Positions 31 to 59,153 of a DNA stretch of 64,000 bases are shown in pieces. Each line of letters begins with the position of its first letter. Position 1 is the first letter of the stretch. The notes under the pieces were generated by a model. It worked only from the letters and a program-made list of their open reading frames with translations, did no database searches and was not told the origin of the DNA. Position numbers and translations under genes: made by a program. Source of the stretch: an uncultured Thermoplasmatales archaeon (GTDB lineage: Archaea > Thermoplasmatota > E2 > UBA202 > DSCA01). Location: NCBI GenBank assembly GCA_964606745.1, contig CAZSHJ010000003.1:4806-68805 (forward strand), read 5' to 3'.

Positions 31-1077
31 ATGACAAATATCGCAGGAACAGATGCACACTATTACAATGCATCTTATTCCTTACAAGGCAATTATGAAT
101 ACTTCGTTTGGGCAAATGATACAAGTGGAAATGCAAATACATCGTCTACAAAAACATTTTCGATATTTGTTCCACAATACACCCTCACAACATATGTTGA
201 ACCATCAGGATATGGTTATATCACATTGAATCCATCCGGAGGAACATATGATGAAGGAATCATAGTTACGCTGACAGCCAATCCTGCTTCAGGATACGAA
301 TTCGACCATTGGAGCGGAGATGCAAGCGGAAGCAATCCAACAATACAAATTACAATGAATTCGAATAAAAGCATAACTGCACAATTTTTAGAGACAACTT
401 CACCAAATCATCCTCCAACTGTTGAACTAACTTCTCCAGCTAACGGTTCAATGATGAGTGGAACAGTAAGCATTGCAGGAGCTGCATCCGATACCGATGG
501 AACAGTTCAGAGCGTGCAGGTTAAAATTGATTCGGGCTTGTGGATAAACGCAACAGGAACTACATCATGGAATTATTCGTGGGATACCACTGCCGTTGCA
601 AACGGAAGCCATACCATTTATGCACGAAGCTATGATGGAACGAATTACTCAAACATTTCATCTTTAACAGTGAATGTAAACAACATTCCGCCAAATCATA
701 AACCAACAGTAGAAATCATCTTTCCAAATGATGGAATGGATGTTAAGAAAACATTTACCATTCACGGTACTGCAAGCGATGAGGATGGAGATGAAATTCA
801 GGTGGAGATAAAGATTGGTGACGGAAGTTGGAAAGTCGTTAATGGAACAACAACATGGAATTATACGTGGGATAGCACAAGTGTTGACAATGGAGAATAC
901 AGTATACAAGTAAGAAGTTATGATGGACATGAATATTCAAGCATTGACTCAATAATGGTTAAAGTGAATAATAAAAAAGAAGGCGGTGGTACTCCTGGCT
1001 TTGAATTTATTGCTTTGCTTGTAGCTCTGACTTCTGTGCTGATATGGGGGAGAAAAAGGAACGGCAATAAGTTTTAA
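31..1077 (+). CDS. Secreted surface protein with Ig/PKD-like repeats and a C-terminal PGF-CTERM archaeosortase sorting signal. The 5' end is truncated by the window edge.
   Basis: Repeated ~90-aa modules (TVELTSPANGS.../TVEIIFPNDG...; WNYSWDTT.../WNYTWDST...). The C-terminus GTPGFEFIALLVALTSVLIWGRKRNGNKF has a PGF motif, a TM helix and a basic tail. The ORF reaches the window edge with no upstream stop. Confidence 0.7.
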   Translation: MTNIAGTDAHYYNASYSLQGNYEYFVWANDTSGNANTSSTKTFSIFVPQYTLTTYVEPSGYGYITLNPSGGTYDEGIIVTLTANPASGYEFDHWSGDASGSNPTIQITMNSNKSITAQFLETTSPNHPPTVELTSPANGSMMSGTVSIAGAASDTDGTVQSVQVKIDSGLWINATGTTSWNYSWDTTAVANGSHTIYARSYDGTNYSNISSLTVNVNNIPPNHKPTVEIIFPNDGMDVKKTFTIHGTASDEDGDEIQVEIKIGDGSWKVVNGTTTWNYTWDSTSVDNGEYSIQVRSYDGHEYSSIDSIMVKVNNKKEGGGTPGFEFIALLVALTSVLIWGRKRNGNKF

Positions 1078-2414: not shown

Positions 2415-3515
2415 TCATGTCTCATATCCCTTCTCTGCAAGCTTTTCTGGCAAATAGGTGTCCGTCACATAATCCAGACCGTATTTTGCCAGGGCCTGTT
2501 GTTCGGACTTCTTCTTCATCTTGAGCTGCAGTTTTATCTCGCTTTCCCAGAATTCATCGTGAAAGCGGGGGTCCGAAAGCTCTGACTTCAGGGCGGATAT
2601 ATCTTCGTTGGTCAAATCGTCTGTTGGAAGTTCATAGTTGAGGATATCGGAGGGTGTAATCCCGAGAAATTCTGCCGAGGGCGTCGCGAGATACTCGGAT
2701 ATATGTGCAGTTTTTATCGCTCCGTAGGCAACCGATGCAAATATGCGGTATGACCACGGATCGCCGTCAGTAAATACAATCACCGGCAGATTTTTTTCCT
2801 CGTTAATCCTTTTTATGAATCTCCTTGTTGAGCGGGCGGGTTGCCCCTTGAGGTGGACAAGTATGGCATTCTTTTCCTCGTCGAATCCGTTTTCCACCAG
2901 CCGGTCGAACATACCGCCGGTTTCTATGGCAATTACGAGTTTTGCGTTTGTATCCCTGATTTTCAGTTTCTCCCTCTCCACATTGTACGGTATGGAATAG
3001 CCACTGTCGCCGACATCATCCTGGCAGTGTATTCTCCTTTTTTCTCCCTTTCTTGTTATCTCTTCTACGCTCAGGTCACCCATCACTCTTGCCCCGTCCT
3101 CCTCCGGCCTCAGGCCCATATCCTCCCTCAACTTCTTCGTAAGTATTTCAAGGTCTTCTGCCAGCCGGTCGGAGTCGCCCTGTGAAGAAAATTTTCCCTC
3201 GCTCCACCCTTCTGAGATATAGTACATTTCCCTCAAAGTCGATGACTTGTGCTGCTCTATCATCTTTTTGATAAAGTCTATGGTATAGACAGTGCGGAGG
3301 AGCATGTACGCCCCGGGCAGGGATACGGCCGAGCGGGTGGACTTATTTCTTCCATATTTCCAGACCCTGTGTCTCTCATCAAATGCGATATTTGATTTTG
3401 TTCTAGAGGGTATTTCAAGCTCGGGTATCCTTGAATTGTCGAGGTCGTCGTATATTTCCCCGGCTATTTTCATCATTTCCTTTACAGCGGCCCTCCTGCG
3501 TTCTTCCATTGTCAT
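2415..3515 (-). CDS. top6A: DNA topoisomerase VI subunit A (Spo11-like).
   Basis: 366 aa. A winged-helix region is followed by a Toprim block [21 protein letters not shown]. The gene lies immediately downstream of top6B with stop and start 1 bp apart. Confidence 0.9.
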
Positions 3516-9027: not shown

Positions 9028-10920
9028 CTAGGGGTAGCCACCGATTTTCAGGCTTGGGTCTCCAAGCAAACACCATTCCTCTATTGTTTTCCCATCCTTT
9101 TTATCTGTCATCGGAAACTCTGTAAGATAATACGATATCGCTGCTCCATGAGTCTCTCCGAGAATATCCTTTTCTTCTTCTGTATATAACCTAAAAAATT
9201 CGATATCAATTCTATATCCATAATACTCTATACAATCAGGTATTCCATTTCCATTGGCGTCCCCCGTTCTAGCTGGACCATAAGATGTGCATCCTATGGT
9301 TGCTATTGCTCCACCATCAATTTTACGAGTCAGCCACCAACTGAAACACTCGGGACCGAAGGAAGCATGATTGATTATAGCTGATAAGTTTTCAAAGTCA
9401 AGTAGGTTAAGTAAACTAATATCAAACTTGCTATTACTACAACCACCAATCAAGCAAATTGGATACATATCCTTGTTCTTAAAAAGCATAAATTGAGCTT
9501 CATCGATTCCGATCCACACACTCTCATCCAGAGGAGGATGTGTTGCCCAGCTCATCGGGTTGCCGTGTCCCTCAAAATCCAAAAATCCGCATCCTTCGCT
9601 AACTGCATCAATAATATCTTTGCCCTCAGTCAAAGTGTTATCAGATGTAAAGAGTGTTGAAATTTCAAATCCAACATCTTTAAGATAATCTGCGGCTGCC
9701 AATACGGCAAGTTCTCCGTCATAATATTGGTCACCTGCAAACGAATCTCCTCCTATCCCAACGTATTTCTTAGACCAACTTTCTCCATATGCAGTTGTCT
9801 CATAGGTTATTATTTTCTCGACCATGATATCTACTTCAAATTTATTTCTACATGCCAACCTGCCTACATACACATCAGGATACCAATCAAGGACATCTTT
9901 CCCACCAAAACGCCATTCTCCAAAAATGCCGTTGCCGTTACTATCCCAATCTTCAAATACAATATTTCCATCGTCATACTTATAGATATCAGAGAAATAA
10001 AGATCGCTGAGGAAAAATTTGTCACCATCATTAACATCTAAATAAGAATATCTTACTGGACACCACCATTTGAACTCTTTGACGCCACCATGTCTTCCAC
10101 CGACAAGTAACACGTATTTTATTCCCCACTGTTCTACAGCGTCTTTAATGAAATATTTTACCTTCTCGGCATCATCTCTTCCATTCACCGTGAAATAAGT
10201 GCCTCCGTAAATCTCGCTCAAGGTAACCAACTTTGTTGCAACCCCATAGGTTTCCTTATGATTGACTAAAGGCTGCAAAGCATCACTGAACTCAGATGGG
10301 GCAACAATGAGTAAATCATAGACATCATTCTGCAATAACGGCTTTTCTGAAGGTTCATATGTTACCTTTATTTCCATTTTATTAGTATACATCAATTCAT
10401 TTGATGCAGGGATATATCTGCAAGGAAATGCCTGTATAGAAAGGAAAATGTTATGCCCGTCACTATCCCTTCCAGCCCCAATATTGTATGAGATCCAGTC
10501 TAAAGGATAAAGCTCGGTGCTCTGGTATACTGTTCCTTCTGTTATTTTTGTGTCAGCATTTTCCATATTATGGGAAATCGGCTTGGGTGCTGGTTGTATC
10601 TTTCTATCTAACTGCATTGTGTGGATTTCTGATGTCGTTACCTCCACGTTTTCAATTTTTGTTCCAAAGGGAAATGTCATAACCTCTGTTTTATAAGGCA
10701 ATATCGGAAAGTCTTCATTCATTAGGTAGGCCATATCACTTTCAATAAGTGTGTACTCTTGATTTTCTTTTATTTTTGGTGGTGAAAAATTAATTGAAAA
10801 AACATTTGTTTCGTTATGTTTTCCTTTGGCATCTTCCAAAACAGGTGCATTTATTCCTGCAAGCGTTGATGTTCCTAAGAGCATCACGACAATCACAACC
10901 ACTATTCCCAATTTTTTCAT
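9028..10920 (-). CDS. Secreted clan-CD cysteine peptidase-like protein (C25/gingipain-like), paralog 1.
   Basis: 630 aa with a signal peptide. A His-Gly block FEGHGNP and a Cys block ICLIGGCSNS fit the clan CD dyad. Blocks EKVKYFIKDAVEQWGIKYVLLVGG, DWDSNGNGIF...YPDVYVGRLACRN and the C-terminal LLGDPSLKIGGYP are shared with the 26140..28737 paralog. Confidence 0.6.
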   Translation of the reverse strand: MKKLGIVVVIVVMLLGTSTLAGINAPVLEDAKGKHNETNVFSINFSPPKIKENQEYTLIESDMAYLMNEDFPILPYKTEVMTFPFGTKIENVEVTTSEIHTMQLDRKIQPAPKPISHNMENADTKITEGTVYQSTELYPLDWISYNIGAGRDSDGHNIFLSIQAFPCRYIPASNELMYTNKMEIKVTYEPSEKPLLQNDVYDLLIVAPSEFSDALQPLVNHKETYGVATKLVTLSEIYGGTYFTVNGRDDAEKVKYFIKDAVEQWGIKYVLLVGGRHGGVKEFKWWCPVRYSYLDVNDGDKFFLSDLYFSDIYKYDDGNIVFEDWDSNGNGIFGEWRFGGKDVLDWYPDVYVGRLACRNKFEVDIMVEKIITYETTAYGESWSKKYVGIGGDSFAGDQYYDGELAVLAAADYLKDVGFEISTLFTSDNTLTEGKDIIDAVSEGCGFLDFEGHGNPMSWATHPPLDESVWIGIDEAQFMLFKNKDMYPICLIGGCSNSKFDISLLNLLDFENLSAIINHASFGPECFSWWLTRKIDGGAIATIGCTSYGPARTGDANGNGIPDCIEYYGYRIDIEFFRLYTEEEKDILGETHGAAISYYLTEFPMTDKKDGKTIEEWCLLGDPSLKIGGYP

Positions 10921-16935: not shown

Positions 16936-17262
16936 GTGAAAATAATGGATGATAATGACAGAAAATTTTTTACAGAAGAAAAGAAAAGAATAATAGGAAT
17001 TTACAAGGCATGTGAGGAAGAGCAGGAAAGATTATCCAAAGAAAAGGAAATTCGCTCTGAACTGAATATTGACAGGCTTGTAGATAATGAGCGTTACAGG
17101 GGTGAATCAAAAAACTTCTATGGGGCGCTTGGTGATAATTCGCATTTTTATAGAGGGGGATTCAAAATAGAGGACGGACAATTCATTGAGCAAATAAAAG
17201 CAGGGTTGGCAAGGGAACTCGTGGGGATAATAGAGGAAGAACTTGAGTTGGAGGAAAGATGA
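16936..17262 (+). CDS. Hypothetical protein.
   Basis: 108-aa ORF overlapping the mre11 start by 4 bp. Confidence 0.35.
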   Translation: MKIMDDNDRKFFTEEKKRIIGIYKACEEEQERLSKEKEIRSELNIDRLVDNERYRGESKNFYGALGDNSHFYRGGFKIEDGQFIEQIKAGLARELVGIIEEELELEER

Positions 17263-18362
17263 AAGTTCTTCACGTGGCTGACACACACATCGGCTATTCG
17301 ACGTACCACAAAGTTGACGAGAACGGGCTGAACCAGCGAGAGATGGATGTGTATGATGCCTTCAGGCAGTTTGTGGACTATGCGGTTGAGAAAAAGCCCG
17401 ACCTGATTGTTCATGCCGGAGATTTGTTTGATACAGTCCGTCCCACCAACAGAGCGATATCATTCACTCTCCAACAGCTCATCCGCATATCTAACGAGGG
17501 CATACCCATGGTGATAATATCCGGAAACCACGAAACGCCCAAGTTGAGAGAAACGGGCAGCGTATTCCGTATTTTCGAGCATCTTGACGGCATATATCCC
17601 GTATACAAGGGGAAATACGAGAAATATGAATTCGGAGATGTAATGGTTCATGCAATTCCCCACTGCAGCACAGGCGATGATTTGAGGAGAAACATAGAAG
17701 ATATGGATGCGAAAGAGGGTGTTTTCAACATCCTGATGCTGCATGTCGGCGTTGCCGGCATAAAGGAATTCCGCACGGGTGACTTCAACGAGCAGGTGGT
17801 GCCGAGCGGCTGCCTGTCCCCTGATTTCGATTACATCGCACTGGGGCACTATCACAAAAAGACGAGGGTGACGGACAATGCATATTATTCGGGTTCGACG
17901 GAACACCTGTCCTTCAAGGAGGCGGGCGGGGAAAAGGGTTTTTTCGAGATGGATACCTCCACCGGTAGGGCAACCTTCATTCCGTTAAAAGTAAGGGCCA
18001 TGGTGGATACGGGCATTATAGACTGTGCCTCCATGTCATCGGACAAGATAACGGGCGAAATAATGGAAAGGCTTAAAAATACGGGCACGGAGGGAAAAGT
18101 GCTGAAAGTGACATTGAAGGGAATGAACAGGAGCACGTACAAGGGGCTGAACTTTCACGAAATCAGAAATGTCGCATCGGATGCGCTCCACTTCGAGCTT
18201 TCCTATGAACTAAAGGAGATGGAGCAGGAGGTGGCAGGGGAGGGGAGCATCGGCTCACTTATAGAAGAATGGAAGGAATATCTGTCCGGCATCGCCATAG
18301 AAGGAGATAGGGATGCAATAGAAGGAATGGCCATGAAGTACCTCTCGGAGGTGAGCGGTTGA
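17259..18362 (+). CDS. mre11: Mre11 double-strand-break repair nuclease.
   Basis: Phosphoesterase motifs HVADTHIGY, GDLFD and GNHE are present. The stop overlaps the rad50 start. Confidence 0.9.
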   Translation: MKVLHVADTHIGYSTYHKVDENGLNQREMDVYDAFRQFVDYAVEKKPDLIVHAGDLFDTVRPTNRAISFTLQQLIRISNEGIPMVIISGNHETPKLRETGSVFRIFEHLDGIYPVYKGKYEKYEFGDVMVHAIPHCSTGDDLRRNIEDMDAKEGVFNILMLHVGVAGIKEFRTGDFNEQVVPSGCLSPDFDYIALGHYHKKTRVTDNAYYSGSTEHLSFKEAGGEKGFFEMDTSTGRATFIPLKVRAMVDTGIIDCASMSSDKITGEIMERLKNTGTEGKVLKVTLKGMNRSTYKGLNFHEIRNVASDALHFELSYELKEMEQEVAGEGSIGSLIEEWKEYLSGIAIEGDRDAIEGMAMKYLSEVSG

Positions 18363-20767
18363 AGCTTCTATCCATTGTGCTTCACAACTACAGGAAATTC
18401 CAGCATGTCGAGATTATCTTCCCTGACGGCATCACGGCAATCATAGGCAACAACGGCTCGGGGAAATCGACAATCATAGAAGCCGTGGGATGGGCGATAT
18501 ACGGTAGTAAGGTTGCCCGCACCAACAAAGAAGGCATAAGAAGACAGAGTGCAAGTCCCAACGAGGAATGCTGGGCCCGGCTGACGTTTGAGCTCGGGGG
18601 AGATGTGTACGAGGTTACTAGGATGATGACCCCGTCTTTCTCGGCCGATGCAAACGTCAAGGTGAATGGGTTGGTGGCAGCCTCCTCCGCCACCGGCGCC
18701 ACCCGGCTGCTGGAGAAGAGGATAGGAATGGATTACGATGCCTTTTTCACCTCGCTGGTCGCCCGGCAGAAGGAGATAAATGCACTTTCGAGCAGGACAC
18801 CGGGGGAAAGGAAGAAGAGCATGCTCAGGATGCTGAAAATCGATGCCATCGAGGATGCGGTGAGGAAGGTGAGGGATGACCGAAAGGGGAAGGAGAATGT
18901 CGTGGAGGCGATGGAAGGCACTCTTAAGGACATGGATGAACTCAAAAAGGGCATGGATGAAAGCAGGGCAAAAAAAGAGAGTCTGGCGTTAAGACTGCAT
19001 GAAACGGAGGACAAAATTTCGTTGCTTGAGGGGGAGGTCGGGGAGCTGGAAGTCAGGAGAGAGGCGGAGAAGAAGAAAGCCGAGAGGTATAACGAGCTGG
19101 AAAGAGAGAAGGTGCTGGTTGGTGAGAGGGCAGAGTCGAAAAGAAGGCAGATGGAGGAAAAGGAAAAAGAGAGGATTTCACTCACGAAAAAAAGGATACG
19201 GTACGGGGAGATAGAGCCGTTGGAAAAAGAGTATGATGCCCTAAAAAAAGAAAAAGAGCACATGGAAGGCATGAGGGAAAAATACCTTTCGGTCAAGAAG
19301 TTAAGGGAGGATATAACCGGCTTTCGGAAGGAGACGGAGGGGATGGATAAAACCATTGTAACTCTCGAGGAAAGGTTGAAGGAAAGGGAAAAGATAGGAA
19401 AAGAAGCGAGGGAGCTGGAAGTCGGACAGAGAGAAATCACGGACAAAAAGGAGAAAATAAAAAGTTCGATAAGGATAAAGGTTTTTCAGATAAAGGCATC
19501 GGAAGAGAAAATAGAGGCGACCGAAAAGGAGAGGAAAAAAATAGAGGAAATGGGACCCGACAGCAGCTGTCCCACATGCGGCAGGCCTCTAGAAGGGCAT
19601 TATGGTAAAATTATCAAGAATTTTGCGGAAAAGGCGGAGGGTGAACGAAAAAATATCGAAGCGCTCGGGGCGGAGCAGCGCTCACTTAAGGATGAGCTTG
19701 AGGGGCTGGATGCCGAGGAAGAAGCGTTGAAAAAAAGGATGGACGGGGCAATAAAACTTATGGAAGAGATAAAGGAGAATGAACAGAGATTGGGACATGT
19801 ATTGGAGACTAAAAAGGAAAGGGAGGCAAAGGTAGGGCAGATTGAAGGCAAAATTGCCGGGATGGGAAAGGTGGAATTTGACGAGAAAATATACGGGGGG
19901 TATGGGGAAAAACTCGGGGAACTGATGCCGGTAAAAGAGGATATAATCGTTCTCAGGAACGAAATCAAGAGACTGCCCGAGGTGGAGGGTACCATCTCGC
20001 AGTTGAAAATCGATATGGAATTGCTTGACAAGAGGGCGGAGGGTATAGCCCGGGAAATCAAGGAACTGGATTTCGATAAACAGAGATACGAGGCAATCGA
20101 GAAAAAATACGAGGAAAAAAGAAAGGAGATGCAGGGAATGAGGGAGGGACGGGTGCGGCTGGAGGGGGAGATAAAGCAGGCAAAATTGGATTTGGAACGA
20201 CTTGAAAAAGACATGAAGGAACAGAGGGAAGCGAGGGGAAAAATAAAGGCATTGAGAAGGGAGATACAACAGCTTGAGACACTTGCGGGCGACCGCGATT
20301 CCGGTCTTCTCAATGATTTCAGGAGATATTTGATTTCAAAGATAGGGCCGGTGCTTTCATATCATGCTTCAAACTTCTTCAACGTATTTACGGGGGGAAA
20401 ATACAGCCAGATGGAGATAGACGACAATTATGATATATTTATCTACGACAACGGGGAAAAGTTCGCCATCAACCGTTTTTCCGGGGGGGAGGAGGATCTG
20501 GCAAATTTGTCCCTGCGTCTTGCAATCTCCCAGATTATAGCCCAGCGCGCCGGCAATCTTGAATTCAATTTCATAGTGCTTGACGAAATATTCGGTTCGC
20601 AGGACAACGAGAGGAGGGCAAACGTACTGAATACCCTGGGAGAGTTGTCTCACCAGTTCCGTCAGGTCATACTCATAACCCACATAGAGGAGATAAAGGA
20701 CGGTATGCAGTACGTCATAAAAACCTTTGAGGACGAGGAGGGTATATCTCATGTGAGGGTGGAATAA
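18359..20767 (+). CDS. rad50: Rad50 SMC-like ATPase with a zinc hook.
   Basis: Walker A GNNGSGKST, a long coiled coil, the CPTCGRPL zinc hook, and the C-terminal signature FSGGEEDLANLSLRLA followed by a D-loop. Confidence 0.9.
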   Translation: MKLLSIVLHNYRKFQHVEIIFPDGITAIIGNNGSGKSTIIEAVGWAIYGSKVARTNKEGIRRQSASPNEECWARLTFELGGDVYEVTRMMTPSFSADANVKVNGLVAASSATGATRLLEKRIGMDYDAFFTSLVARQKEINALSSRTPGERKKSMLRMLKIDAIEDAVRKVRDDRKGKENVVEAMEGTLKDMDELKKGMDESRAKKESLALRLHETEDKISLLEGEVGELEVRREAEKKKAERYNELEREKVLVGERAESKRRQMEEKEKERISLTKKRIRYGEIEPLEKEYDALKKEKEHMEGMREKYLSVKKLREDITGFRKETEGMDKTIVTLEERLKEREKIGKEARELEVGQREITDKKEKIKSSIRIKVFQIKASEEKIEATEKERKKIEEMGPDSSCPTCGRPLEGHYGKIIKNFAEKAEGERKNIEALGAEQRSLKDELEGLDAEEEALKKRMDGAIKLMEEIKENEQRLGHVLETKKEREAKVGQIEGKIAGMGKVEFDEKIYGGYGEKLGELMPVKEDIIVLRNEIKRLPEVEGTISQLKIDMELLDKRAEGIAREIKELDFDKQRYEAIEKKYEEKRKEMQGMREGRVRLEGEIKQAKLDLERLEKDMKEQREARGKIKALRREIQQLETLAGDRDSGLLNDFRRYLISKIGPVLSYHASNFFNVFTGGKYSQMEIDDNYDIFIYDNGEKFAINRFSGGEEDLANLSLRLAISQIIAQRAGNLEFNFIVLDEIFGSQDNERRANVLNTLGELSHQFRQVILITHIEEIKDGMQYVIKTFEDEEGISHVRVE

Positions 20768-20817
20768 TATAACAGGCATAACAGAAAATATTAAATCCAG
20801 CACTTAATACAATCTCA

Positions 20818-20936
20818 GGGCCGGTAGATCAGCTGGAAGATCGCCACCTTCGCAAGGTGGAGGCCACGGGTTCAAAAGAGGGGGTTGCACCTCATTAAGG
20901 GGGGATGCAACCTGTTTGAAAATCCCGTCCGGTCCA
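20818..20936 (+). tRNA. tRNA-Ala(CGC) with a ~46-nt intron in the T-loop, near positions 59/60.
   Basis: Acceptor stem GGGCCGG/CCGGTCC includes a G3:U70 pair. D-arm is GATC/GATC. Anticodon stem CCACC/GGTGG has loop TTCGCAA. T-stem ACGGG/CCCGT is interrupted after TTCAAA by AGAGGGGGTTGCACCTCATTAAGGGGGGATGCAACCTGTTTGAAAA, which can form a hairpin and pair with the exon, consistent with a BHB-like fold. Confidence 0.7.
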
Positions 20937-21070
20937 TATTTTTGATTTAAAAAGACCAGAAGAAAATTAAATGAATTAGCAGGGGCGGTATTTGTTTAGA
21001 TAATAGATAGAGGTCAGTGTTCTGAAGCTGAGGATTGTCCATTAGATAAGGCCACACTATATTTTGAAGA

Positions 21071-22606: not shown

Positions 22607-23020
22607 TTACATAAACTTCCTTTTGATCCAGGTCCTATCAAAATCTCTGTCATTTGAATAAATCGTGCTTATATTCATCCTTTTCATAACAGCTAATGAA
22701 ATGCAGTCATTGAAATCGATTTTATACTTTTTTACAAATTCAGATGCCGCTATAAAGTCTCTCATATCTAAGGGTATTATCTCCAGGTGGAATATTGAGG
22801 ATATTAGTTTTATTTCTTCTTCTATCTCTTCTGACCTTTTATGTTTTTCAAGCCACCAACATACTTCTGCAAGATTTATTTGAGAGGTTACTGCTTTCTC
22901 TCCACTATCAATTCTCTCCAGTATTATTTTTGATACCTCTCCAAACTCAGGGTGTCCCTGGATGGCATAAATGAAGACATTGGTATCTACAAATCTTCTT
23001 CTATTCTTTTCTTCATCCAT
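22607..23020 (-). CDS. vapC: PIN-domain ribonuclease, a VapC-type toxin.
   Basis: FVDTNVFIYAI plus conserved acidic residues including SNDRDFD. Confidence 0.75.
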   Translation of the reverse strand: MDEEKNRRRFVDTNVFIYAIQGHPEFGEVSKIILERIDSGEKAVTSQINLAEVCWWLEKHKRSEEIEEEIKLISSIFHLEIIPLDMRDFIAASEFVKKYKIDFNDCISLAVMKRMNISTIYSNDRDFDRTWIKRKFM

Positions 23021-23235
23021 TCTCTGGCCTCTCTTTTTGGATTTTTCTCTGGCTTTACTTTTACGCTTCCATACAATTTTTCCACAGGTTTTTCTACCAT
23101 ATCCTTGGATCTTATTACCAGTTTTTTATCATCTATCGAGATCAATATCTTTTCTCCCTCCCCTATTTTCAGTATCTTTCTCATTTTCTTGGGGATGACA
23201 ACTCTCCCGCCCACCGATACTTTCATTTCTTCCAT
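22987..23235 (-). CDS. vapB: AbrB/SpoVT-family antitoxin (VapB). The start is trimmed to the MEEMKVS methionine.
   Basis: A swapped-hairpin motif VSVGGRVVIPKKMRKILKIGEGEKILI lies just upstream of vapC and overlaps it. Confidence 0.6.
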   Translation of the reverse strand: MEEMKVSVGGRVVIPKKMRKILKIGEGEKILISIDDKKLVIRSKDMVEKPVEKLYGSVKVKPEKNPKREAREWMKKRIEEDL

Positions 23236-23351
23236 TTTCCCACAAAATACATGTAGTTTTGGTATATAATATTTGTCATTAAATATTATCCATAGAGATT
23301 TTGTCAAATAAAAGATGGTACAATTCTCTTGTCAACTAGTTATTAATAGCA

Positions 23352-26139: not shown

Positions 26140-28737
26140 CTACGGATATCCGCCTATTCTCAAGCTCGGGTCGCCCAGCAGAATCCACTGCTGCACGGCT
26201 TTTTCATCTATGGAATCCCATCCCAAGTCGGGGAACCACCAGCATTCGGGCAGTGTAAAGGACTTGAAGTGGCTGATGTAGCTGGTCTGGGTCTGGGCGT
26301 ATGCGGTACCCAGCATGTCATATTCATGCTCGCCGTACTGGCGGAAGAACTCCGAGGTAATCCAACCGTCTCCTGCCCCAACCGTACAGAACTCTCCTTC
26401 CCAGCCCCAGCCGAAGCCCGTGTTGCCCATGGATGCAATAGCTCCCGTTTCGGGCATCTTCACAATATACCAACTCCAGCATTCAGGTGTGGGCTGACCG
26501 TAGGTGTGCATGTAGATATTTTTACCGAAGAAGAGCAGGAAGAAGATATCCAGTACTGAGGGAACCAGTGACACGTTGAACAGGCTGTTGTGACAGCCAC
26601 CCACTACCACCACCGGATATTTACCCGTATTGGCCAGCTGCTTCATGGGAAATGCCGGAAATTGTATCCAGGGGAAGAATGGGGAAACCTGGGAAACTGT
26701 AAGGCCGTCCACCGAACCGTACTGTCGGTTGCCGGGTATGCCGGGATATTGGTCGCCCCAATACCCAGGGCTGCCGTGCCCGGAGAAAAAGGCGAAACCG
26801 TGACCCTGGCTGAAGGCCTCGATGATGTCAGTCTGACCGGTAAATCGGCCGTTGGATGTCCATACAATCTCCTGTTCAAACCGCTCCGGCATGTAGTAGA
26901 GGGCTCCTCCTCGACCGTGCAGGGACTTGGCACCGGTGACCCATTCGCCTTCATAATAGACCTCGGTGTGGTTGCGGTAGTCGTTGAACATCACCTCCCC
27001 GTTGCTGTTTTCTATCCACAGGTGTACGTCCGTGACGTTGCCGTAGGGCTGCGGGTCATAAGACTTGCCTCTGATGTGCAACACGCCGTCCATGTAAGAA
27101 ACGTTTGCCCACCAGAAAAGAGTGTTGCAGTACGCCTCGCTCTCGCTGGGGGTGTACGAATAGTCATCGCTGCCCAGGACATCGCCATCAGATATAGATA
27201 CGATTTCAGTAATAGGTGGGGCCGGATACCCATCTTGCAGGGCAGGATTGAGATGGTCGTCGTGGTTGAAATGCAGTTCGGTGTCGGCACCCCGGTCAAG
27301 GTCAACGTTAACCACGTCAGCTGGGCCAGTGTCGCCATCGTCGTTGGTGCTCTGGGCGTAAATGGTGTATTGTCCGTCGGGAAGACCCGTGGTGTCCCAT
27401 TGGAAGTCCATGTCATGCTGGTCAAGAAACCCGTCGCCGGACGCCACCATGACGCTCTCAAACCAGTCGGCATTGTAGGTAGTGGTCTCGTAAGTGATAA
27501 TCTTATTCACCACGTCCTTAACCTCCTGGACGTTCCGGCAGGCCAGCCGGCCCACGGCTACATCCGGGTATAGGTCTGTAACATCCTCCGGGGCACCTGT
27601 CTCGTCGGTCCATTCGGCAAAGATGCCGTTGCCGTTGCTGTCCCAGTCCTCAAATGCACCCCCTGTCTTGTAGATGTCGGCGTAATACAAGTCGCAGGGA
27701 TAACCGGGCTCTCCGGACACCAGATTTGAATATCTTACGGGTACGTGCCATCCCTGAACTCCGCAGTTGGCATTGTCACGGGGCTTGGCATACAACAAGG
27801 ACTTGAGTCCGCCGGCTAGGATAACGTATTTAATGCCCCAAGACTCGATGGCGTCTTTGATGAAATATTTAATTTTCTCTGGCTCATCCACACCGTCATA
27901 CTGGGCGTAGATGTCCTCGGTGGTTTGGAGAAGGGTTGTAATGCCCATGCTGGTCTTGTGGTCCGCCAGCCACTGCAGTTCGGAGGAAAAGATTTGAGGG
28001 GCAATTATCACCAGGTCGTAGGCGCCGGCACGGGTAAGAGTGACGGCGGGTGAATCGTAAGTGATATGCATATCAGCACCGTCGGCCACATACAGCAGGT
28101 TATCTCCCGGTATATAGCGGACGGGGTAGAGGTTAACGGTTACGTAGGTGACATGCTCCATCTCTCCGTTCAGTCCGCAGCCCACGTTGTAACTGTACCA
28201 TGCGGCGGGGAACGGCTGATGGCTGTTATATAGTGAAATATCTTTTCCGGGCGGCGCGTACCCTTCAATGGGGGATAGGGGCATGGGTGCCGGAGCAGGG
28301 AGAACCTGATCCTGAACGGACTGCTCGTGTATACCGCGTGGTTCCACGGCCACTCTGACATTGCGTACTCCGAAGGGCAGTTGGAAGGTCTGTACCGTGC
28401 GGGGAAGCAGGGGCTTGCCAGGGTTAAGGAGGTAGTCTGTTCCATCACACTCCAGCCGGATATATCCGTCCGTACCTCTGGTGGAGGTAACTGATGAAAA
28501 ATCAATGGTTGCAGTGCGGGGGGCATACATGCCAGACGGCGATGTGCGGTAATCCGTCCCGTGGTTCACGGAAACAGCGGCTGCCCCCAGCCCACCCAAA
28601 ACAATCATGTACACAACGGCAATAGCGAGTATTTTTTTCATAATATCACATGCATATATCGGCTGCTGACTATTAAAAATTTTGTTGGTTGATAATTGAA
28701 AGGCATTATTGGGAAAACTCAATTTTAGAATTGTCAA
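26140..28737 (-). CDS. Secreted clan-CD (C25/gingipain-like) peptidase-like protein, paralog 2. GC-rich, with a ~230-aa Ig-like insertion.
   Basis: 865 aa with a signal peptide. SGHGSPGYWG and VVVGGCHNS His/Cys blocks are present. Blocks EKIKYFIKDAIESWGIKYVILAGG, DWDSNGNGIFAEW...YPDVAVGRLACRN and the C-terminal LLGDPSLRIGGYP are shared with paralog 1. GC is markedly higher than in its neighbours. Confidence 0.6.
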   Translation of the reverse strand: MTILKLSFPNNAFQLSTNKIFNSQQPIYACDIMKKILAIAVVYMIVLGGLGAAAVSVNHGTDYRTSPSGMYAPRTATIDFSSVTSTRGTDGYIRLECDGTDYLLNPGKPLLPRTVQTFQLPFGVRNVRVAVEPRGIHEQSVQDQVLPAPAPMPLSPIEGYAPPGKDISLYNSHQPFPAAWYSYNVGCGLNGEMEHVTYVTVNLYPVRYIPGDNLLYVADGADMHITYDSPAVTLTRAGAYDLVIIAPQIFSSELQWLADHKTSMGITTLLQTTEDIYAQYDGVDEPEKIKYFIKDAIESWGIKYVILAGGLKSLLYAKPRDNANCGVQGWHVPVRYSNLVSGEPGYPCDLYYADIYKTGGAFEDWDSNGNGIFAEWTDETGAPEDVTDLYPDVAVGRLACRNVQEVKDVVNKIITYETTTYNADWFESVMVASGDGFLDQHDMDFQWDTTGLPDGQYTIYAQSTNDDGDTGPADVVNVDLDRGADTELHFNHDDHLNPALQDGYPAPPITEIVSISDGDVLGSDDYSYTPSESEAYCNTLFWWANVSYMDGVLHIRGKSYDPQPYGNVTDVHLWIENSNGEVMFNDYRNHTEVYYEGEWVTGAKSLHGRGGALYYMPERFEQEIVWTSNGRFTGQTDIIEAFSQGHGFAFFSGHGSPGYWGDQYPGIPGNRQYGSVDGLTVSQVSPFFPWIQFPAFPMKQLANTGKYPVVVVGGCHNSLFNVSLVPSVLDIFFLLFFGKNIYMHTYGQPTPECWSWYIVKMPETGAIASMGNTGFGWGWEGEFCTVGAGDGWITSEFFRQYGEHEYDMLGTAYAQTQTSYISHFKSFTLPECWWFPDLGWDSIDEKAVQQWILLGDPSLRIGGYP

Positions 28738-34455: not shown

Positions 34456-34528
34456 GGGCCCGTGGGGTAGCTTGGCATCCTTCCAGCTTGGGGTGCTGGT
34501 AACCCGAGTTCAAATCTCGGCGGGCCCA
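34456..34528 (+). tRNA. tRNA-Pro(GGG).
   Basis: 73 nt. Acceptor stem GGGCCCG/CGGGCCC is followed by discriminator A. Anticodon stem CCAGC/GCTGG has loop TTGGGGT (anticodon GGG, G37). T-arm CCGAG-TTCAAAT-CTCGG. Confidence 0.8.
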
Positions 34529-34844
34529 TTTCTATTTTTATCTGGCATTTGTATTTGCCCATGCATTAGCGGCTGGCTGATTTAAAAGCGCGGAGGGAGG
34601 TGCTGAATCCCACGATAAATTTTATGGTTGGAGAAGGGATTCCGCCAGCTCTCCTCTTCGTAAGAAGCCCCGCCATTCATGGCGGGGAGTATGTCACTTG
34701 TTCATTCGTCATTTGTGTGAGGATGCGCCAGTCGCTATAAGGAGAAAGGGATTTACTGAGTGTGCCTAAAACGCACATTTTCCGCTCTTTTTTGTTACTT
34801 TCCGAAGTACTGATAAAATCGATAAATTTATAATAAGTTATTGT

Positions 34845-35774
34845 TTGATACCAAATAGGATGGGAAAGATGGATATCAGGGATTACAAATCTGGTATAGC
34901 TAATTCCTTAGATATAAAAACTATTGATAACATACTCATTAAGTTGATAGTATCAGAAAAAGAAGATGACGTTAACTGCGATTATTATATGATTGAATGT
35001 TATGAAGACGATATCCGGGAAGAAGATTTTTTACGAGCTTTAGTTAATATGATTCCCCATTATGCATTAAAAAGGGAAAAATTGGATTCTCTTTCGAAGG
35101 AAAATTTTATGAAACTCAGTAAAGAAGCTTTAAGAAGATTTGTTAGAACTGAAAACTCGGGGGAAATTGGAGAACTACTGATCTTTATTTTATTAGAGGC
35201 CGAAAGGAAGGCTTCTCAATTGATAAATAAAATGGTTTTGAAGACTTCTGGGGGTGTTCACGTTTATGGTCTTGACGGAATACATATTGGGGTTCTTGAC
35301 GATGATGTTGTTCTATACTATTGTGAATCCAAAACTTACAAAGATTTAAACAAGGGCATAAATGCTGCAATATCTGATTTGGATAAATTTCATCAGGACA
35401 ACATAAAAGAAGCCTTCGAATTAGAGCTTGTTAGCGATAATATAGATGAAAAAAAGTTTGAGGGAATCAAAGATAAACTTTTGGAATTATTAGATCCTTA
35501 TACAGAAATAGATAAGAGTCACTTTAAAAAGAAATATGCAATTTTTATTGGATTTGATTGGGCTAATATCAAATCATTTAATTTTAGGCCACCTATAAAA
35601 AATATCGAAGGGAAATTATGTAAATGCCTAAAAACTGATTCCAAAACAATTTGTAATAGATGCAAATCACTTGTTGATAAAAAAACAATCAATCGTTCTG
35701 TAGATATTTTCTTTTTGCCTTTTAAGGATTCTAAAAAAATAAATAGAGATTTCGTTAGGGAGATAAAATCATGA
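34845..35774 (+). CDS. PD-(D/E)xK nuclease-fold protein, a HamA-like (DUF1837-like) candidate.
   Basis: 309 aa. GELLIFILLE...GLDGIH...VLYYCESKTYKD fits the D...ExK pattern. Its stop overlaps the start of the helicase gene. Confidence 0.45.
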   Translation: MIPNRMGKMDIRDYKSGIANSLDIKTIDNILIKLIVSEKEDDVNCDYYMIECYEDDIREEDFLRALVNMIPHYALKREKLDSLSKENFMKLSKEALRRFVRTENSGEIGELLIFILLEAERKASQLINKMVLKTSGGVHVYGLDGIHIGVLDDDVVLYYCESKTYKDLNKGINAAISDLDKFHQDNIKEAFELELVSDNIDEKKFEGIKDKLLELLDPYTEIDKSHFKKKYAIFIGFDWANIKSFNFRPPIKNIEGKLCKCLKTDSKTICNRCKSLVDKKTINRSVDIFFLPFKDSKKINRDFVREIKS

Positions 35775-38329
35775 ACCAGGGTTGGTATCAAGAATTGAGC
35801 AACCGAATAACTTCAAATGATGAATTCATTGGGGATTATCTTGAATTATCAAGGCATTTTTTCAATAATAAGCAAAATAGTCTGTCATCAAAAACCCTTA
35901 AAAGACTTATGGAGAGTGCTTCAATTTTTGCTTGCTCCTCAGAGGAAACCCATAAAAGATTGGCTTTAAAGATTGCTGGCTCAGTTATGGAGGCTGATAT
36001 TGATAATGAAGCCTTAACTGCAGCGTCTGAGTTAATATTTTTAAGATTAGGCAATTTTCCATTAATAAGAATGGCTATAGAAAAATATGAAATGAAAGAT
36101 TTTTTTAGCATTTACAATGGAAATAGACCATTGACTACTCTCTCCCTAAACTATGAACTCACCAACAAGGTTATATCAAATCAAATAGTTATCGGGAAAA
36201 ATATTGAATTATTTACAGATTTTCAATCGAATGTAATAAAATTTTTAAGTGAAAAAGAAGATCTTTCTATTTCTGCTCCTACTTCAGCAGGAAAATCTCA
36301 TGCGTTGAAATCCTTTATTATTCAATCCCTTTTGACAAAAGAAAGATTTGTAGTGGTTTATTTGGTGCCAACCAGGGCACTCATAACTCAGGTACAGAAA
36401 GAAATCAGACAATCATTTAATGAATACTCCATAACTGATGCTGAAATTTTCACCTCTTCTTGGGAAGTGGTCGGGGAGGGAAAACATGAATTTTCTAAAG
36501 CAGTTATAATTTTAACGCAGGAGCGCCTACAAACTATAGAGGGAAGGACAGATAATTTTCAAGTGGATTTTCTTGTTGTTGATGAAGCTCAAAATATTGA
36601 AAAGGGTAGTCGAGGAATTACCTTAGAAGATAGTATTATGCAACTAATTGAATGGAACCCAGATTTTCAAATTGTATTTATATCTCCTTTTAGTAAAAAT
36701 CCAAAAAAATTTGGTGAGATATTCTCTTATGAAACTAAAGACATTATAACAAAACTTACGCCGGTAAGCCAAAATATTCTTTACGTCAATATTGATGGTA
36801 AAAAAATTACTATTAAACAAGTTTCACAGGAATTAGAAAAAATTCTAGATATGGCAGAATATGATGGTGAAAAATCCCTTCCTAAAGTTGGATATAAAAG
36901 AAAATCTTGGGTTGCGTTAAATCTTGTTGATGGCAACTCTACACTAGTTTATTGTGATGGGGCTCATGATTGTATAAGAACTGCACATTATCTTGTAGAT
37001 AATGCCAAAAATGCATCACTAAATAATAAAGAACTTGATGACGCTGGTAATTTTCTAGCTTCTTATATTCACCCACAATATTATCTTGTCGATTTCATCA
37101 AGAAAGGAGTTGGTTATCACTATGGAAACATGCCAGCTTCTGTACGGACTATTGTAGAATCACTGTTTAAAAAGAGATTAATTAATTCTGTGTGCTGCAC
37201 AAGTACATTATTAGAAGGCGTTAACTTTCCAGCAAAGAATATTATTTTGTACAGACCGAAAGTCGGTTTGAAAAACCCTATGGACAAGTTGGGATTTTTA
37301 AATTTAGCTGGACGAGCTGGGAGATTGATGGAAGATTTTGTGGGTAATATTTACTGTATTAACCCCCAAGAATGGAGGGATGGTTATACCCCAAAATCAA
37401 CACCAGAAGACCATGAAATTGGAAGCTCTATGGAAGATGTTGTAAAGAAGAAAAAAGATGAAATTATTAGTCATTTGAAAAAGTATGTAAAGAAAAGAGA
37501 TAATGAAGATGTCATGGTAGCAGTCACTAGATTTTTGGTAAATGAAATTAGAAAAGGAAACAAAGAGTTTGTGAAAAATCTGTTGCAACGTGATAAAGAA
37601 ATTCGAAAACAAGACCTAGATGACATTGTTAAAATGGTTAAACAAATTGTAAGTGAAATAGAATTAGATGGTAAAATTATTATTAAAAATAGGGCTATTG
37701 ACCCCAGATTACAGAATAGATTGTACTTGCACCTTCAAAAAATGGACGAACCTCCTTTGCCCCTTCATCCATCAAATTTTGAATTTTATGAGTCTTTGTT
37801 AAAAATATTAAGTGTAACTAACGAGATATTCCAGAGGAAAAAACCCGAAAATTCGTTAAAATTCACAGCTTGGCTTTCAAAGTCATGGTCAAACGAGGAA
37901 CCTTTAAATGAAATTATCAAACAAAGAATCTCGTATAAATCCAAAAACACTCAACTTACAAAGAAGAAAATCAATGATATAATAGAAGATGATATTATTA
38001 AACATATCAATCATAGAATAAGATACGAGGTAGTTAGGGATTTTAGTTGTTATATCTCTATACTTAAATATGTATTAGAAGAAAAAGATGGGGTGCCTGA
38101 ACATTTTGATGAGAAAGTACCATATTATTTGGAAATTGGGGCAAGTACACCCACCACGATCACTTTAATCAATAACGGCATTCCAAGATCGCTTGCATTA
38201 TTATTTTCTGAGCATCTGCCTGAAGATTTACAGGATTTTGAACTTTGCAAGAAATATATTGAGCAAAATGAAAGTTATATCAAACAAAAAATCTCACCCG
38301 CCTTATACAAAGAATTAGTATTGTTTTAA
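35771..38329 (+). CDS. Ski2/Hel308-like SF2 helicase, a HamB-like candidate.
   Basis: 852 aa with motif I ISAPTSAGKSHAL, motif II FLVVDEAQNI, GVGYHYGNMP (an HHAGL-like motif), CTSTLLEGVNFPAKNIILY and motif VI NLAGRAGRLMED. Confidence 0.55.
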   Translation: MNQGWYQELSNRITSNDEFIGDYLELSRHFFNNKQNSLSSKTLKRLMESASIFACSSEETHKRLALKIAGSVMEADIDNEALTAASELIFLRLGNFPLIRMAIEKYEMKDFFSIYNGNRPLTTLSLNYELTNKVISNQIVIGKNIELFTDFQSNVIKFLSEKEDLSISAPTSAGKSHALKSFIIQSLLTKERFVVVYLVPTRALITQVQKEIRQSFNEYSITDAEIFTSSWEVVGEGKHEFSKAVIILTQERLQTIEGRTDNFQVDFLVVDEAQNIEKGSRGITLEDSIMQLIEWNPDFQIVFISPFSKNPKKFGEIFSYETKDIITKLTPVSQNILYVNIDGKKITIKQVSQELEKILDMAEYDGEKSLPKVGYKRKSWVALNLVDGNSTLVYCDGAHDCIRTAHYLVDNAKNASLNNKELDDAGNFLASYIHPQYYLVDFIKKGVGYHYGNMPASVRTIVESLFKKRLINSVCCTSTLLEGVNFPAKNIILYRPKVGLKNPMDKLGFLNLAGRAGRLMEDFVGNIYCINPQEWRDGYTPKSTPEDHEIGSSMEDVVKKKKDEIISHLKKYVKKRDNEDVMVAVTRFLVNEIRKGNKEFVKNLLQRDKEIRKQDLDDIVKMVKQIVSEIELDGKIIIKNRAIDPRLQNRLYLHLQKMDEPPLPLHPSNFEFYESLLKILSVTNEIFQRKKPENSLKFTAWLSKSWSNEEPLNEIIKQRISYKSKNTQLTKKKINDIIEDDIIKHINHRIRYEVVRDFSCYISILKYVLEEKDGVPEHFDEKVPYYLEIGASTPTTITLINNGIPRSLALLFSEHLPEDLQDFELCKKYIEQNESYIKQKISPALYKELVLF

Positions 38330-58352: not shown

Positions 58353-58520
58353 AATGGTGTTAAGAAAAATTATTATCCAAACAAATAAAGGAAAAAGATT
58401 GGTTATGAAAAATGGAGAGCTAAATATCGAGAGTTTTGAATAACCTCATAGAAACATGTATCTGGCGGTTTTCCATTCCTTATCAATGGAATAGAGGTGA
58501 TGGTACGGGCTTTAACAAGT

Positions 58521-59153
58521 TTATTCTAAATTTAACTCATCAATCAACCTTTTTGCCCATATGAGTTTTCTTCTTTTTATTTCGGTATCCTTGCCTTCTT
58601 TCGGTCTTGGATTTTCGAAATCAAAGCCGAGCAGTTTTATCTCTCTGGAGCCAAAGTGTTTTGCCATGAAGAATGCTCTGTCGCCGTCAGTAAATCCTCC
58701 GAAATTGTGAACATTGTCGAAGGGCTTTGACTGCGTGGTGAGCACTACCCTGCTCTTAAAGAGAGGTGCATATTTTTTTATTGCATCAACATTATCTCCG
58801 TGAGCATGAATAACTGCAATACTTCCTCTCTCATTTGCCTCAATCTGGTTCTCCACCTTTCCATCGAGGTCGGTAACGATTATGTCCGGGAGAATGTGTT
58901 TAATTAAAGTCGAAGTGGATTCATCGGCAGCAATCACTGTGCCGTCAATTTTTTTGATTTCTGTGGCAAGTCCTTTTGCCGCCCCGCATATTGTAACCTT
59001 TTTTCCCTGCAGTTTATCTTTCAAAATTTTTATGTCGGTACTTTTCTTCGCCAATGAATGGAGCAGTCTGGCTGCATTTTCATCCTCCTGTCGGCTATAG
59101 CCGAATTCCTTTAGAATGGATTTGTAGAACGGTTCCCATTCGCGGAAGTTCAT
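58521..59153 (-). CDS. DUF115/MptE-like protein, possibly an archaeal 6-hydroxymethylpterin diphosphokinase.
   Basis: 210 aa. The architecture, and its position next to nucleotide-biosynthesis genes, support the call. Assignment is tentative. Confidence 0.35.
   Translation of the reverse strand: MNFREWEPFYKSILKEFGYSRQEDENAARLLHSLAKKSTDIKILKDKLQGKKVTICGAAKGLATEIKKIDGTVIAADESTSTLIKHILPDIIVTDLDGKVENQIEANERGSIAVIHAHGDNVDAIKKYAPLFKSRVVLTTQSKPFDNVHNFGGFTDGDRAFFMAKHFGSREIKLLGFDFENPRPKEGKDTEIKRRKLIWAKRLIDELNLE

Follow-up and report, generated by a model that had tools for sequence, protein, structure and literature searches.

The locus at positions 20818-20936 (plus strand) raises the question of whether a tRNA-Ala gene whose T-loop is broken by 46 nt is still a working gene, and by what means the extra sequence would be removed from its transcript. 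It lies in a stretch of 64,000 nt, called the window below, whose Mre11 protein also turned up in Logan assemblies of SRR9705735, which marks the window as metagenomic. The gene content of the window was archaeal (topoisomerase VI A/B, Mre11/Rad50, an ELP3 homolog, TruA, a CDC48-N protein and two C25 peptidases), and the lineage is apparently affiliated with the Thermoplasmata, as judged from synteny and best similarity. We infer, with a probability of about 0.88, that the locus is a functional archaeal tRNA-Ala(CGC) gene carrying a 46-nt intron between tRNA positions 59 and 60 that would be removed by protein enzymes. At the level of sequence, the analysis demonstrated the gene anatomy, the foldability of a bulge-helix-bulge (BHB), the orthology and the conservation of the junctions.

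The whole gene spanned 119 nt and did not encode CCA; it comprised a 59-nt 5′ exon, the 46-nt insertion and a 14-nt 3′ exon. Read in gene order, it consisted of the acceptor strand GGGCCGG, UA, the D arm GAUC-AGCUGGAA-GAUC, G, the anticodon arm CCACC-UUCGCAA-GGUGG, the variable loop AGGCC, the T-stem strand ACGGG, the T-loop nucleotides UUCAAA, the 46 nt, the remaining T-loop U, the T-stem strand CCCGU, the acceptor strand CCGGUCC and a final A. The 5′ exon (20818-20876, plus strand, tRNA positions 1-59), recognized by a pattern match and a partial Rfam tRNA match of 26.7 bits, thus held everything from the acceptor 5′ strand through the D arm, the CGC anticodon arm, the variable loop and the T-stem 5′ strand to T-loop nucleotides U54-A59, and the 3′ exon (20923-20936, plus strand, positions 60-73) held U60, CCCGU, CCGGUCC with U70, and the discriminator A73. 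The invariant features U8, G18G19, U33, G53-C61, U54U55C56, A58, G3:U70 and A73 could all be read in the spliced tRNA, and linear numbering equals standard tRNA numbering in this gene (8-nt D loop, 5-nt variable loop). The intron, AGAGGGGGTTGCACCTCATTAAGGGGGGATGCAACCTGTTTGAAAA (20877-20922, plus strand), contained the 7-bp hairpin arms GGTTGCA (20883-20889) and TGCAACC (20906-20912), followed by TTTGAA (20915-20920), which complements the exon TTCAAA (20871-20876).

The gene was found directly downstream of mre11 (17259-18362, Pfam Metallophos) and rad50 (18359-20767, SMC_N/AAA_23), which served as synteny anchors (17259-20767, plus strand). A TATA-box-like sequence, TATTAAAT (20789-20796, plus strand), was centred ~25 nt 5′ of the gene and preceded by a BRE-like AAAA; it is read here as a putative archaeal promoter, and a sigma-70 promoter scan is not applicable to such a gene. 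On the other side, a TTTTT run 3 nt 3′ of the gene (20939-20943, plus strand) is likely an archaeal oligo-T terminator. In three orthologs from metagenome-assembled genomes (MAGs; L099, L065, and L117), only 0-2 nt separate the stop codon of rad50 from the start of tRNA-Ala, an arrangement suggestive of co-transcription or of a promoter within rad50. The window, unlike these three, has a 50-nt spacer (20768-20817) with the TATA-like box between the two genes.

When the unspliced window was searched, ARAGORN reported only tRNA-Pro(GGG) at 34456-34528, and the same gene was the sole tRNA in the window according to Rfam at the gathering threshold. At relaxed thresholds, the Rfam tRNA model matched 20818-20874 at 26.7 bits (threshold 29) and skipped the T arm. 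After 20877-20922 had been deleted in silico, ARAGORN called a 73-nt tRNA-Ala(cgc) with a normal cloverleaf and G3:U70. The first-pass annotation had stated that such a cloverleaf, with its CGC anticodon, emerges only once 46 nt following TTCAAA are removed, and had described the GGTTGCA/TGCAACC hairpin and the TTTGAA complement; all of this was borne out, and ARAGORN, which it had suggested as a check, fails on the unspliced gene. The right tool would be tRNAscan-SE in archaeal mode or SPLITS; in tRNAscan-SE 2.0, the archaeal mode has the search for non-canonical introns on by default (PMC8450103). Since neither ARAGORN nor the Rfam tRNA model at threshold detects the gene, tRNA-Ala(CGC), and probably the GGC and UGC genes as well, will seem to be absent from genomes of this lineage that are annotated without an archaeal search allowing for introns.

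The 59-nt 5′ pattern of tRNA-Ala matched once in the window and never in 100 shuffles, so that no second tRNA-Ala(CGC) was found in the window by this pattern. The unspliced RNA folded with a z-score of -3.7 relative to shuffles. The window also yielded no second tRNA with a T-loop intron when stem-matched candidates were spliced and passed to ARAGORN; the finder that proposed these candidates was used for this purpose only, since it did not require the acceptor stem to pair and most of its calls were false positives from genes that have no intron. Sub-threshold Rfam matches at the locus (glmS, snoR30, and a frameshift element) were regarded as noise.

The two junctions fold as a 3-4-3 hBHBh′ motif: each sits in a bulge of 3 nt, a 4-bp helix lies between the two bulges, and a further helix borders the motif on either side. 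In the outer helix h, the T-stem strand ACGGG (20866-20870, plus strand) pairs with CCCGU (20924-20928) at an ensemble probability of at least 0.86, and one compensatory change from A-U to U-A was seen there in an alignment of the seven-member intron family described below. In the central helix H, U54 U55 C56 A57 (20871-20874, plus strand) pair with UGAA at the 3′ end of the intron (20917-20920, plus strand), and this exon strand is invariant in all seven family members. The first bulge (20875-20877, plus strand) consists of A58, A59 and intron A1, with the predicted 5′ splice site at 20876/20877; the second (20921-20923, plus strand) consists of intron A45, A46 and U60, with the predicted 3′ splice site at 20922/20923. 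The cut position within each bulge would follow the published rule for 3-nt bulges. Cuts at 57/58, 58/59, and 59/60 all yield an identical product, because the AAAA at the intron terminus adjoins the AAA of the loop, and it is the 3-4-3 geometry that assigns the cut to 59/60. Beyond the central helix, the inner helix h′ and the intron hairpin (20878-20916, plus strand; 90% of cells paired in the family alignment) are built from a G.U and an A-U pair (20878-20879 with 20915-20916), an internal loop, GGGUUGCA/UGCAACCU, CCUC/GGGG and a 7-nt loop; the part of the inner helix beside the bulge is only G.U plus A-U.

The first-pass annotation had called this a relaxed BHB. The BHB is indeed foldable, but it takes the complete 3-4-3 hBHBh′ form and is stricter than relaxed; of the TTCAAA/TTTGAA complementarity, H uses only UUCA and UGAA, and A58 and A59 sit in the bulge. 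The inability to fold any h-BHB-h′ had been named as grounds for giving up the gene; the motif did fold, at -52.1 kcal/mol when enforced on the precursor vs. -53.8 kcal/mol for the minimum free energy (MFE) structure, a gap of 1.7 kcal/mol, and the structure predicted to have the lowest energy is a different one. Because the central helix reached an ensemble probability of only 0.17-0.20 at 37°C in the window (0.4-0.9 is reached in relatives), the BHB is modelled as an accessible but non-dominant conformer. Among 200,000 shuffles of the intron, 3.1% gave four of four central pairs, and 0.44% gave at least two inner-helix pairs as well. Judging from the geometry, position 59/60 would be the T-arm counterpart of the canonical 37/38, each having a 5-bp stem and a 7-nt loop whose sixth nucleotide precedes the intron, and an ordinary BHB could form at 59/60 because the stem and loop design is the same.

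Species-representative genomes were then scanned with the 5′-exon pattern of tRNA-Ala(CGC), leaving the intron unconstrained, and at least 120 loci were obtained. Most of the matches listed were intron-less (...GGGTTCAAATCCC...). Among the matches listed, five loci with four distinct introns had an insertion at the identical site: Heimdallarchaeota (L006/L033, 31 nt), Thermoplasmata (L018, 146 nt), Aenigmarchaeota (L078, 87 nt) and Thermoplasmatales (L117, 30 nt). The locus had been proposed as a taxonomic marker, a role for which it is poorly suited, since tRNA-Ala introns at the same site occur in MAGs labelled Thermoplasmata, Heimdallarchaeota and Aenigmarchaeota and vary in presence and absence among close syntenic relatives. 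The introns of L018 (after position 3349, minus strand) and L078 have the exact 12-mer UCCAAAAGCGCU in common, as well as the 8-mer AGCCCUUU at an equal offset from the 5′ splice site. These shared words may reflect homology of the introns or transfer across phyla, or they may be due to chance.

When the open reading frames (ORFs) of the window were compared with the loci by tblastn, the order mre11-rad50-tRNA-Ala was recovered in L065, L061, L099, and L117. These four are MAGs deposited as Thermoplasmata/Thermoplasmatales, with identities to the window of 58-62% for Mre11 and 43-57% for Rad50. Three of them (L065, L061, and L099) were intron-less, with the T-loop TTCAAAT and Rfam tRNA scores of 67-69 bits, and their genes matched the predicted spliced product in exon order and layout and in the T-loop. 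The intron-less syntenic orthologs are the strongest in silico check on the predicted splice junctions, and the proposed 59/60 position of the intron is one on which the in silico splice, the BHB geometry and these orthologs agree. The intron-bearing L117 was missed by the Rfam tRNA model, as were L160 and L155 from the metagenomes.

The metagenome scan required an insertion and forced GAAWA before UCCC. It returned 40 loci representing 23 distinct intron-bearing tRNA-Ala genes, and the same mre11-rad50 neighbours were present in 11 of these loci, the closest being L160 (Mre11 75%, Rad50 62.5%) and L155. In all, mre11-rad50-tRNA-Ala with an intron was found in L117/L158, L160, L155, L139, L137, L161, L157/L146, L131, L147, and L128. 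Introns alignable with that of the window (AGARGGGGYTGCA...GCAACCYRTTTGAAAA) were found in tRNA-Ala genes with the anticodons CGC (L160, L155, L132), GGC (L152, L129/L148), and UGC (L134), and the bodies of the CGC, GGC and UGC genes were near-identical. In the resulting seven-member family, 97% of 244 cells pair, compared with 31-53% when the partners are slid. Because the BHB core is invariant in all seven members, this alignment is evidence of conservation, not proof by covariation or compensatory change.

The argument from junction conservation is best placed on introns that cannot be aligned, not on the close family. Among 27 distinct introns at the same site (20-146 nt, mostly unalignable), the central helix had four of four pairs in 21 and three of four in six, counts that overstate the conservation in the metagenome set, where the scan pattern fixed three of the four bases of the intron strand H′. 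In the set free of this bias, the H′ equivalents were UGAA, UGAA, UGGA, UGAA, and AGAA. The BHB fold lay 0-4.8 kcal/mol above the MFE across the 27 introns. Some metagenomic loci (L122, L136, L159; L133, L151; L143, L150, L126) had a T-loop intron, and the sequence upstream of it was not a continuous tRNA 5′ half. This suggests a second intron, at the canonical 37/38 or in the variable/T-stem region, and these loci would then be multi-intron genes, probably from other archaeal lineages.

A gene that standard finders reject when unspliced, and whose BHB differs from the minimum-energy fold, could also be a dead tRNA-Ala(CGC) from which the 46-nt insertion is never removed. We consider this quite unlikely. 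The exons of the window are intact and 100% identical to those of L132 and L155, yet the flanking rad50 DNA is only ~70% identical, which argues for selection on the tRNA. Insertions at the exact site persist in a clade with Rad50 identities as low as about 43-50%, and the junction pairing is kept though the interiors of the introns have diverged past alignment. The locus also has signals resembling a promoter and a terminator, and the window contains no further match to the tRNA-Ala(CGC) pattern.

The history of the intron was followed in a neighbour-joining tree of the 285 C-terminal residues of Rad50. Loci with alignable introns clustered together in this tree: the window with L160 and L155; L161 with L137 and L139; and L147 with L131. 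The intron-less L065 and L061 were nested inside intron-bearing groups, and the intron-less L099 was outermost. The simplest reading of this pattern would be one old intron whose sequence has drifted and which was precisely lost at least two times; repeated gain may be the other reading of the same distribution.

The same tree bears on another proposal, that a small mobile element or repeat, MITE-like or the remnant of an integration site, landed in the T-loop, which we hold to be slighter still in probability than a dead gene. The similarity of the introns follows the Rad50 tree, pointing to vertical descent. Integration into tRNA genes is common, the 46 nt include an inverted repeat, and related introns occur in three tRNA-Ala isoacceptor genes, but with bodies as near-identical as those of the isoacceptors, duplication or conversion explains the sharing. 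Moreover, the 46-nt sequence occurs just once in the window, with neither a target-site duplication nor a duplicated tRNA 3′ half, and no archaeal attP-like match was found in viral contigs. Only five of the fetched loci had short local matches of 13-15 nt; three of them (L129, L148, and L152) are related T-loop introns, and the matches in the other two (L013 and L087) were marginal, at E 0.43. A chimeric tRNA produced by an error of assembly or sequencing, conceivable for a window from a metagenome assembly, has a negligible probability, given that independent assemblies from other projects contain homologous introns at the same site beside the same flanking genes.

Other identities for the insertion were rejected. 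At 46 nt, it is far shorter than the core of a self-splicing group I or group II intron (at least ~200 nt, P1-P9 or domains I-VI), and no Rfam intron family matched at E ≤ 10. A box C/D guide RNA within the intron was rejected as well, as 20877-20922 contained no C box (RUGAUGA), no D box (CUGA) and no C/D match in Rfam. Protection of an integration target gained no support from a search of viral contigs with the unsplit T arm and 3′ end, which retrieved three phage tRNA-Lys genes and one tRNA-like element and no archaeal attP. The tRNA-like element, at ~3140-3220 (minus strand) of the viral contig L163, is a mini element with an Ala-type acceptor stem (G3:U70), a T arm and a CCA end (GGGCCGG...GGGTTCAAATCCCGTCCGGTCCACCA), and it was not called by a tRNA-only search with ARAGORN.

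For the preferred reading, a functional gene with a spliced intron, we propose the following route. Transcription would start from a TATA-like promoter belonging to the gene. The precursor would keep its T stem paired, U54-A57 would bind the intron UGAA and the intron hairpin would stack beyond, giving a helix, a 3-nt bulge, a 4-bp helix, a 3-nt bulge and a helix in succession. The archaeal splicing endonuclease EndA would cleave in both bulges, and an RtcB-type ligase would connect the two exons, giving a 73-nt tRNA whose T-loop is the normal UUCAAAU, and would probably circularise the intron. The intron itself would be old and vertically inherited in the Thermoplasmata-affiliated clade, drifting in sequence with its junction pairing kept and precisely lost in some members. 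No Pfam match to the tRNA-splicing endonuclease or RtcB families was found in 53 of the 58 rough ORF calls of the window (40 compared by scan and the rest via existing annotations; the other five were short or lay at the 3′ end of the window).

Several other features of the window were observed. At 34593-34710 (plus strand), 65 nt downstream of tRNA-Pro(GGG), there was an Rfam HgcC match of 38.5 bits (threshold 50, E 2.6e-5), and the GC-rich 3′ hairpin region of this HgcC-like RNA (34640-34702) was ~87% identical to two places in L139. Directly after the tRNA-Pro and the HgcC-like RNA, a Hachiman-type defence pair was located at 34860-38329 (plus strand), with HamA (PF08878, E 1e-47) followed by a DEAD/ResIII helicase; it overlapped the lowest GC content of the window (32-34%, 36-40 kb) and looks like an island inserted beside a tRNA. 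A box C/D-like sequence, ACATATGATGAAGGAATCATAGTTACGCTGA (244-274, plus strand; C box ATGATGA, D box CTGA), matched Rfam GlsR7 at 25 bits, far under threshold, and may be an archaeal C/D sRNA. The intergenic stretch 58424-58530 (107 nt) was ~88% identical to positions 26-127 of L152, which also has tRNA-Ala(GGC) with a homologous intron; its predicted fold was no more stable than those of shuffled sequences, whichever strand was taken (z -0.4 and -1.3). A PIN-domain toxin and an overlapping MazE/AbrB-type antitoxin (VapBC-like) were found at 22607-23307 (minus strand), 1.7 kb downstream of tRNA-Ala. The Peptidase_C25 (gingipain-like) genes were at 9028-10920 and 26140-28737 (both minus strand), the latter in a patch of 54% GC compared with ~40% in its surroundings.

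Position 59/60 is already known, if uncommon, and is listed among the non-canonical intron sites of archaea (PMC4090602); to that extent the finding is an annotation catch. The nearest parallel is ARMAN-2 (Ca. Micrarchaeum acidiphilum), which has 59/60 introns in pre-tRNA-Cys(GCA) and pre-tRNA-Pro(GGG) (Fujishima et al., 2011; PMC3239211), and its tRNA-Cys intron was cut in vitro by its own epsilon2 EndA (PMC3239211). The T-loop position and the BHB-type signal are the same, and the ARMAN-2 tRNA-Pro intron has a strict hBHBh′ (PMC3239211). However, ARMAN-2 is a DPANN host with a broad-specificity epsilon2 EndA, and its tRNA-Cys intron is 13 nt long with a relaxed hBH, whereas the window has a 46-nt intron with a 3-4-3 motif in the tRNA-Ala of a Thermoplasmata-affiliated lineage.

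Non-canonical introns in Crenarchaeota/Thermoproteales and Aeropyrum pernix form a second group for comparison (Marck and Grosjean, 2003; Sugahara, 2008; reviewed in PMC4090602; PMC3241643). They resemble the present case in being BHB introns away from 37/38, 59/60 included, with similar introns across different tRNA genes. They differ in being processed by an (alpha-beta)2 EndA and in being many, often several per gene, whereas the window has a single intron in one gene, and its only other tRNA, tRNA-Pro(GGG), is intron-less. The canonical 37/38 introns of Euryarchaeota (alpha4 or alpha′2 EndA) share the 5-bp stem, the intron after the sixth of seven loop nucleotides, four loop nucleotides that pair with the 3′ end of the intron, and the 3-nt bulges; the motif in the window differs in lying on the T arm and not on the anticodon arm, so that the T-loop and the D/T elbow cannot form before splicing. 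A further parallel is the tRNA-Trp intron with a box C/D guide RNA in Haloferax and others (cited in PMC4090602), which is likewise an unusually long and internally structured archaeal tRNA intron; the intron in the window differs in having no C/D boxes and no Rfam family match.

The introns of Euryarchaeota have been said to occur at the canonical position only, and the Thermoplasma-type alpha′2 EndA to have a narrow specificity (PMC4090602, PMC6379350, PMC5829648). An intron in the T-loop that is found across a Thermoplasmata-affiliated clade would be a mild exception to this view, softened by the fact that the motif in the window is a strict BHB, acceptable in principle to a narrow enzyme. 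A bolder proposal, which we hold only tentatively and think rather improbable, is that the clade kept the 59/60 intron in tRNA-Ala over deep divergence, with Rad50 identity falling to about 45%, including members with only three central pairs, and that either alpha′2 enzymes are broader than stated or its EndA has broadened. If that were true, an alpha′2-type EndA would routinely handle substrates at non-canonical positions in vivo, even slightly relaxed ones, or the clade would have an unrecognised, broadened EndA; this would also suggest that the intron is kept for a reason, for example to order T-loop modification and elbow formation or to disrupt an integration target. What is new here is a well-supported case of a T-loop intron found across a clade of an apparently euryarchaeal lineage, with no new mechanism. 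The intron-bearing and precisely intron-less alleles in one gene neighbourhood form a natural series for the gain, loss and drift of a tRNA intron, and the same series would be useful for testing the cutting range of the alpha′2 endonuclease.
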